Source of the DNA: Escherichia coli
GTDB taxonomy: Bacteria > Pseudomonadota > Gammaproteobacteria > Enterobacterales > Enterobacteriaceae
Direction: 5' to 3' (one strand)
Assembly (NCBI RefSeq): GCF_003334255.1
Contig: NZ_QOWU01000219.1
Length of the DNA: 586 bases
This document shows, piece after piece, positions 1-134 of this stretch (within the stretch, counting starts at the first letter, position 1; each line of letters opens with the position of its first letter). The translations under genes were made by a program, and so were the position numbers. Under the pieces are notes generated by a model. That model worked only from the letters and a program-made list of their open reading frames with translations. It was not told where the DNA came from and made no database searches.

Positions 1-134
1 TCGTCAAAAACCCCCTGAACTTCGCCGCCACGTTGTGCTCCGGAGGTGAACTGCGCACGGATCCCCATCACTTCAACAATCGTACTGTCCACCCCGGCAA
101 GGGCGGCATCAAAGGCATTCTGAAAATCACGCAT
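1..134 (-). CDS. FII: Head-completion / head-tail joining protein FII-like; partial, first 44 codons only, C-terminal part lies beyond the window
   Basis: Minus-strand ATG at 134-132 opens a frame reading MRDFQNAFDAALAGVDSTIVEVMGIRAQFTSGAQRGGEVQGVFDD, still open at position 1. It aligns from residue 1 with lambda FII as I recall it (MADFDNLFDAAIARADETIRGYMGTSATITSGEQSGAVIRGVFDD). This ORF is absent from the supplied track, presumably because it is truncated. Its start overlaps the FI stop. Confidence 0.85.
   Translation of the reverse strand, partial: MRDFQNAFDAALAGVDSTIVEVMGIRAQFTSGAQRGGEVQGVFD

Follow-up and report, generated by a model that had tools for sequence, protein, structure and literature searches.

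The FI-FII junction of a phage-21-type head module in Escherichia coli prophages: a known 8-nt gene overlap and a candidate for translational coupling

The stretch of DNA analysed in this study (586 nucleotides; hereafter the window) comes from an E. coli prophage and contains the point at which FI meets FII in a lambdoid head module of the phage-21 type. It differs from phage 21 itself in being a prophage copy, 100% identical to that of ATCC 25922 and to those of many other E. coli genomes, while the gene order, capsid, hairpin, FI and FII, is the same. Matches to the window were detected in 1,546 of 5,426 complete E. coli genomes, with at least 80% of the window covered in 888. The identity with phage 21 is 98.8% (seven base differences in 585), and two of these differences lead to substitutions in FII, S26R and H40Q.

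All the genes in the window are encoded on the minus strand. The 3′ end of the major capsid protein gene (553..586) provides the last ten codons (...PDEFVVVQVK*), with the stop TAA at 555-553. Next comes the homolog of the DNA-packaging protein FI (127..501; 124 aa plus TGA), which corresponds to ORF1 of the early phage 21 record. Its residues 3-120 match positions 1-130 of the 131-position Pfam model PF14000 (E = 8.9e-16), that is, over the full length of the family, and the N-terminus shares 34% identity with that of lambda FI; the location between the major capsid gene and FII is as expected of FI, and the protein is annotated as gpFI in RefSeq. A sequence search of PDB with FI gave no match. 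The third gene is the homolog of FII, the head-tail joining or head closure protein, of which the window includes the first 44 codons (1..134) before the frame runs off its end. Protein matches for FII were made with a full-length copy that is identical to the window over their shared part: this protein matches PF05354 (E = 3.2e-18), is 70% identical to lambda FII, and aligns collinearly, including the N-terminus, with the solved structure of lambda gpFII, PDB 1k0h (1-117 on 1-117; E = 3.7e-51). Both frames at the junction are thus real genes and not chance open reading frames. On the plus strand, short ORFs of 20-49 aa at 33-182, 46-123 and 310-372 run antisense to FI and FII; these are unannotated in all the matched records and are presumably chance ORFs.

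The start of FI is annotated inconsistently among the records, some using an upstream GTG or ATG to give 143-aa and 135-aa versions (as at locus L006, from 277, and locus L008, from 295), and the ORF listing for the window opens at GTG 549 (region 549-499). Such upstream starts would begin inside, or cross, the hairpin described below. The consistent FI start is ATG 501-499, which has a GGGGG Shine-Dalgarno (SD) sequence five nt upstream (507..511, minus strand); this is the ribosome-binding site (RBS) in both M81255 and OL657228, and its duplex with the anti-SD sequence was calculated to be -9.4 kcal/mol. The interval from the capsid stop to FI holds a hairpin resembling a terminator (515..545, minus strand), GCGGGGGC-GAAAT-GCCCCCGT and then a T-run, with 9 pairs including 7 G-C. 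At the equivalent position, the lambda and phi80-type lineages carry G+C hairpins of different sequence with U-rich tails; a rho-independent terminator is annotated at the equivalent hairpin in HK225, but not in the phage 21 records. Since Q-modified polymerase reads through terminators, the hairpin may serve rather as a stabiliser of an mRNA 3′ end or as a step-down in expression after the capsid gene.

The FI and FII genes overlap by 8 nt on the minus strand, sharing the octamer ATGCGTGA at 134-127 (minus strand 136-127, TTATGCGTGA), in which the FII start (134-132) precedes the FI stop (129-127). The FI frame ends as GGT GGA ATG GCT GTT TAT GCG TGA (G G M A V Y A *), and the FII frame begins as ATG CGT GAT TTT CAG AAT (M R D F Q N), with its ATG lying within the last two codons of FI. 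The junction therefore belongs to the co-directional -8 nt overlaps of the NTGNNTGA type, in which the downstream start lies 5 nt before the upstream stop. This arrangement can be read directly from the window, its existence is essentially certain, and the octamer is annotated identically in M81255, OL657228 and NZ_CP037449. The original prediction had placed the ATG, the TGA and the 8-nt overlap correctly in all coordinates; its description of the ATG as one codon upstream of the TGA has to be corrected, however, because two bases, not a codon, separate them.

The assignment of the FII start to ATG 134 was upheld. It is the sole start common to all the lineages, it is used in all the annotations, and it is collinear with residue 1 of lambda gpFII in 1k0h, giving the conserved N-terminus M-x-D-F-x-N-x-F-D (the aligned N-termini, M-[RA]-D-F, are collinear). 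The FII frame is open upstream as far as a TGA at 183-185 (minus strand), and this open stretch includes ATG 170-168, TTG 155-153, ATG 152-150 and GTG 149-147, so that initiation at one of these in-frame codons, with a longer overlap with FI, was considered. We give hardly any weight to this reading: in the PhiR12 lineage the frame is closed by a TGA 8 codons upstream and offers no other start, none is found in lambda, phi80 or mEp237, and it is at ATG 134 that the N-terminus aligns with that of gpFII. The same open stretch, 17 codons upstream in the window in the +1 frame relative to FI, could in principle let ribosomes slip by +1 close to the FI stop and produce an FI-FII fusion protein. Reading of the sequence revealed no known +1 slippery motif, however, the PhiR12 lineage retains an open stretch of only 8 codons, and the fusion is impossible in the lambda-type phages (spacer plus in-frame stop). 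We thus rejected the fusion, too, as extremely improbable.

The overlap itself is already known. In the record of the phage 21 head operon (M81255), ORF1, the FI homolog, occupies 7599-7973 and gene 8, the FII homolog, starts at 7966, giving the same 8-nt overlap; the two genes and their overlap are unchanged in the complete genome of phage 21 (OL657228) and in the NCBI annotation of ATCC 25922, and every later record shows the overlap too. Relative to the ATG, the window and phage 21 agree at every base from -45 to +27 at least, ATGCGTGA included. The view that the junction differs from the prototype therefore holds with respect to lambda, in which a spacer is present, but it is no new departure: this is an ordinary junction of a well-described class, annotated since M81255.

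The short spacer that the original prediction ascribed to lambda was confirmed in NC_001416, where the last base of FI is 7600 and FII begins at 7612, leaving 11 nt. Comparison with lambda and its relatives separated two arrangements, a -8 overlap in the 21 type and spacers of 10-11 nt in the lambda, phi80 and N15 types. In the window and phage 21, the FI-FII distance is -8, the FI stop TGA, the SD weak and the FII start ATG. In lambda and ev099, the distance is +11, with stop TAA, SD GGGAGG and start GTG, and the layout of the lambda junction is TAA, CGGGAGGCGCT and GTG. The distance in phi80 is also +11, and that in mEp237 and HK225 +10, all three having stop TGA, SD AGGGGG and start ATG. 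The window thus has neither the 10-11 nt spacer nor the strong SD (GGGAGG or AGGGGG) that characterize the lambda prototype. Nevertheless the genes are homologous and in the same order, and the two ends resemble each other: the C-terminus of lambda FI, G-L-A-R-M-Q*, is in the same length register as G-M-A-V-Y-A* of the window, the FII N-terminus is M/V-x-D-F, and an out-of-frame TGA is present within FII codons 2-3 in lambda as well (GTGGCTGA). The differences are an 11-nt spacer, TAA, the GGGAGG SD (-10.3 kcal/mol, 3-nt gap) and GTG on the lambda side, against no spacer, a TGA inside FII, a weak SD and ATG on the side of the window.

A tblastn search of the phage collection for FII homologs yielded 111 records in three identity groups, 18 of the 21 type, 81 of the lambda type and 12 of the N15/phi80 type; except for single records labelled Campylobacter, Enterobacter and "Phage", all are E. 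coli phages. The -8 overlap was found in all 18 records with 21-type FII, and spacers in every member of the lambda and N15/phi80 types examined. In IMG/VR, the NTGNNTGA junction was kept in 80 of 80 contigs with 21-type FII, a set in which the homolog search had returned close relatives only (at least 96% identity) and which is informative on the diversity of FI alleles, not on independent origins of the overlap. Seventy-nine of these contigs carry ATGCGTGA and one carries ATGTGTGA (locus L087, 901-908), in which a single C-to-T change replaces the last residue of FI, Ala by Val, together with Arg-2 of FII by Cys and leaves the overlap intact.

In contrast to the constant junction, FI is a mosaic gene. 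The 80 loci encode 33 distinct FI proteins, falling into three divergent allele families, the 21, PhiR5 and PhiR12 types; the N-terminal ~40 residues (MATKE…AEWEEE) and the last six (G-x-A-x-Y/H-A) are common to the three, the middles are unrelated, and all three adjoin an almost invariant FII. The combination of diverse FI alleles with a constant junction places the mosaic boundary within ~15 nt of the FII ATG, so that the junction moves with the FII side. The conserved overlap is thus probably a single inherited arrangement, with about one evolutionary origin, and not the product of many events. In one contig (IMGVR_UViG_2609459820_000003, 450-908), FI appears to be frameshifted, the N-terminal part coming to a stop and the C-terminal part, which resembles a hybrid of two FI alleles, continuing in another frame, with the FII junction intact; this FI is a pseudogene or an assembly error.

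A possible origin of the overlap is suggested by the beginning of FII. In every homolog examined, T is the last base of codon 2 and the next codon is GAT for Asp-3 (CGT GAT; GCT GAT in lambda and phi80), and consequently an out-of-frame TGA is present in all these lineages, at which any upstream frame that arrives in this register terminates. This TGA lies within 131-127 of the window and within 716-720 of locus L004. The overlap could then have arisen when an upstream FI frame came in on that register and was ended at the FII-internal TGA. Phage D2 (OM475427, ~660-702 of the locus) provides a parallel, as it carries an 8-nt overlap ending at the FII-internal TGA, GTGGCTGA. In D2, unlike the window, the lambda spacer follows a 21-type FI out of frame, so that FI runs on through the spacer and gains eight new codons (…DNNGRRCG*), while FII still has the strong SD and the GTG start of lambda; judged from its sequence, the D2 overlap is of independent origin.

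In order to evaluate how FII translation may start, the sequence upstream of its ATG was examined for pairing with the anti-SD sequence. The GGUGG at 150-146, noted in the original prediction as a weak candidate for the ribosome-binding site, is indeed present and weak, being poorly spaced at a distance of 11 nt from the ATG, but it is not conserved, GGCGG, AGTGG, AGCGG or CACGG taking its place in other variants; as it is lost in the PhiR5 and PhiR12 FI lineages, we rejected it as a conserved SD. The most stable anti-SD pairing ahead of FII, GAUGGUGGA, lies 10 nt from the ATG and amounts to -4.9 kcal/mol, which places FII 49th among 64 phage 21 genes (median -6.75). The RBS features of the phage 21 records (1939-1942 and 1939-1941 of the locus) map to GGAA at 147-144 of the window, a putative RBS. 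Over 23 distinct junction windows, the sole conserved stretch just upstream of the ATG is GGAAYGGCYG (138..147, minus strand), and this conservation is accounted for by FI coding, namely the conserved C-terminal Gly-Met/Thr-Ala. Among 11 distinct variants of the -8 junction, the pairing ranged from -3.9 to -4.9 kcal/mol, except for two that reach -7.0 at an 11-nt gap, whereas in lambda, phi80, mEp237 and HK225, with spacers of 10-11 nt, it was -9.4 to -10.8 kcal/mol at a 3-nt gap.

Coupling might also come about by RNA unfolding, with ribosomes at the end of FI melting a hairpin over the FII start and thereby allowing fresh ribosomes to initiate. In the minimum-energy fold, the AUG is partly paired in a weak stem with upstream AUGCA and AAACA, and the energy for opening -18 to +13, 13.9 kcal/mol, is above the phage 21 median of 10.1 (rank 28 of 35). 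The fold of 85-200 (minus strand; -36.2 kcal/mol) is, however, no better than that of shuffled sequences (z = -1.5; 14 of 200 shuffles as good), and the upstream arm falls in a region of FI that is wholly different in PhiR12 and PhiR5, where the opening energies are lower (11.6 and 10.7 kcal/mol, respectively). Local structure around the FII start is thus uninformative; structure hiding the start was rejected as evidence, and coupling by RNA unfolding appears very unlikely.

Overlaps of this type are common. By script count, which did not include GT/H, 29 of 55 closely spaced same-strand junctions of phage 21 overlap, among them fourteen of -4, four of -1, three of -11 and the -8 of FI/FII. 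In the literature, the -8 overlap (ATGNNTGA) ranks third in frequency among the overlaps of E. coli and of 1,695 genomes (PMC10666635; reviewed in PMC12548453), the -8 NTGNNTGA class also ranks third by enrichment, and distances in the range from -8 to +10 are taken as predicting termination-reinitiation (PMC10666635, PMC12548453). The geometry of FI/FII is exactly that of this class, with no structural difference. Reinitiation at -8 overlaps is less efficient than at -4 or -1 (PMC10666635, Huber et al. 2023), and overlapping gene pairs are enriched for subunits of one complex (PMC10666635; PMC12548453). Premature-stop constructs for five overlapping pairs of E. coli showed strict coupling in four; in the fifth, bioF was initiated de novo (PMC6728339).

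The frameshift product GT and H form a second -8 overlap in the phage 21 late operon (GT ends at 10737, H starts at 10730), with the same 8-nt start/stop overlap as FI/FII; in this case, however, H possesses a strong and well-spaced SD, GCAGGAGGA (-10.3 kcal/mol, gap 7), which FII lacks. An 8-nt overlap is presumably also present between T and H of lambda. The starts of W, M and H all lie inside the upstream gene, yet their SD duplexes are -9.5, -10.8 and -10.3 kcal/mol, respectively, indicating that a weak SD is not forced by the overlap.

Taken together, these observations suggest that translational coupling from FI to FII is probably the main route of FII initiation. FI and FII, placed by synteny in the lambdoid late operon and with no promoter-like site in the window, would be carried on one late transcript, and most FII initiation would occur by termination-reinitiation. 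A ribosome ending FI would hold GCG in its P site and UGA in its A site; after peptide release, a backward move of 2 nt would bring the AUG into the P site and start FII. As the first base of the FII AUG lies 2 nt ahead of the codon in the P site, this repositioning would suffice for reinitiation, and the output of FII would be tied to the translation of FI, not set by a ribosome-binding site of its own. We consider this reading the likeliest because of the contrast between overlap with weak SD and spacer with strong SD, together with the published work on -8 overlaps. The distance of -8 falls in the range in which reinitiation is observed (-8 to about +10; PMC10666635), the FII start lacks the strong, well-placed SD of the spacer lineages, and the overlap persists in all 80 loci through 33 FI proteins and three allele families. 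The SD contrast is not statistically independent, however, because the overlap has about one evolutionary origin. In a literature search that did not extend to the original head-operon paper, we found no expression, coupling or ribosome-profiling experiment on FI/FII of lambda or phage 21.

The main competing explanation, which we regard as a serious but clearly less probable one, is that FII is initiated independently and that the overlap is a by-product of genome compaction or of a past deletion or recombination at the module boundary. A 30S subunit would then bind directly at the AUG, aided by the weak GGA(A)/GGUGG, by an efficient AUG and by the U-rich tract just upstream. In agreement with this explanation, GGA(A) was marked as RBS by the annotators of phage 21, the start is AUG in the window versus the weaker GUG of lambda, and the -8 geometry of D2 arose by a recombination accident with the TGA pre-existing in FII; one of the five overlapping pairs tested in E. 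coli was also uncoupled (PMC6728339). The start is not sequestered by significantly stable structure, and with a z of -1.5 and only a moderately high opening energy, nothing clearly blocks independent initiation. Several non-overlapping genes of phage 21, Nu1 and K among them, have SDs weaker than that of FII and are presumably translated. We know of no joint complex of FI and FII, in which respect they differ from the one-complex subunits enriched among pairs of the -8 class, and there is thus no obvious need for coupled stoichiometry. On the other hand, the anti-SD pairing of FII ranks in the bottom quarter for phage 21 genes, at 10-11 nt from the start, and the SD-like bases vary among the lineages while the overlap does not. 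In all the lineages without overlap, moreover, the strong SD is kept, suggesting that a strong SD is needed where coupling is unavailable. Readings other than reinitiation coupling and independent initiation together retain very little probability.

A stronger form of the coupling hypothesis would hold that FII is obligately dependent on FI translation with its weak SD near idle, that the FI:FII ratio is set by reinitiation at -8, and that the TGA in FII has been selected as a catch-all stop. We consider this extended version improbable. If true, diverse FI alleles could be swapped by recombination, with the coupled junction restored automatically.

The present finding has little significance beyond annotation, in that the FII start codon is confirmed for a prophage module that is very common in E. 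coli. Coupling between FI and FII, if shown, would be one more example in a well-populated class. The homologous junctions of these phages, -8 overlap with weak SD versus +11 spacer with strong SD, nevertheless offer a natural comparison, which may be useful as a test system for the efficiency of reinitiation at -8 overlaps.
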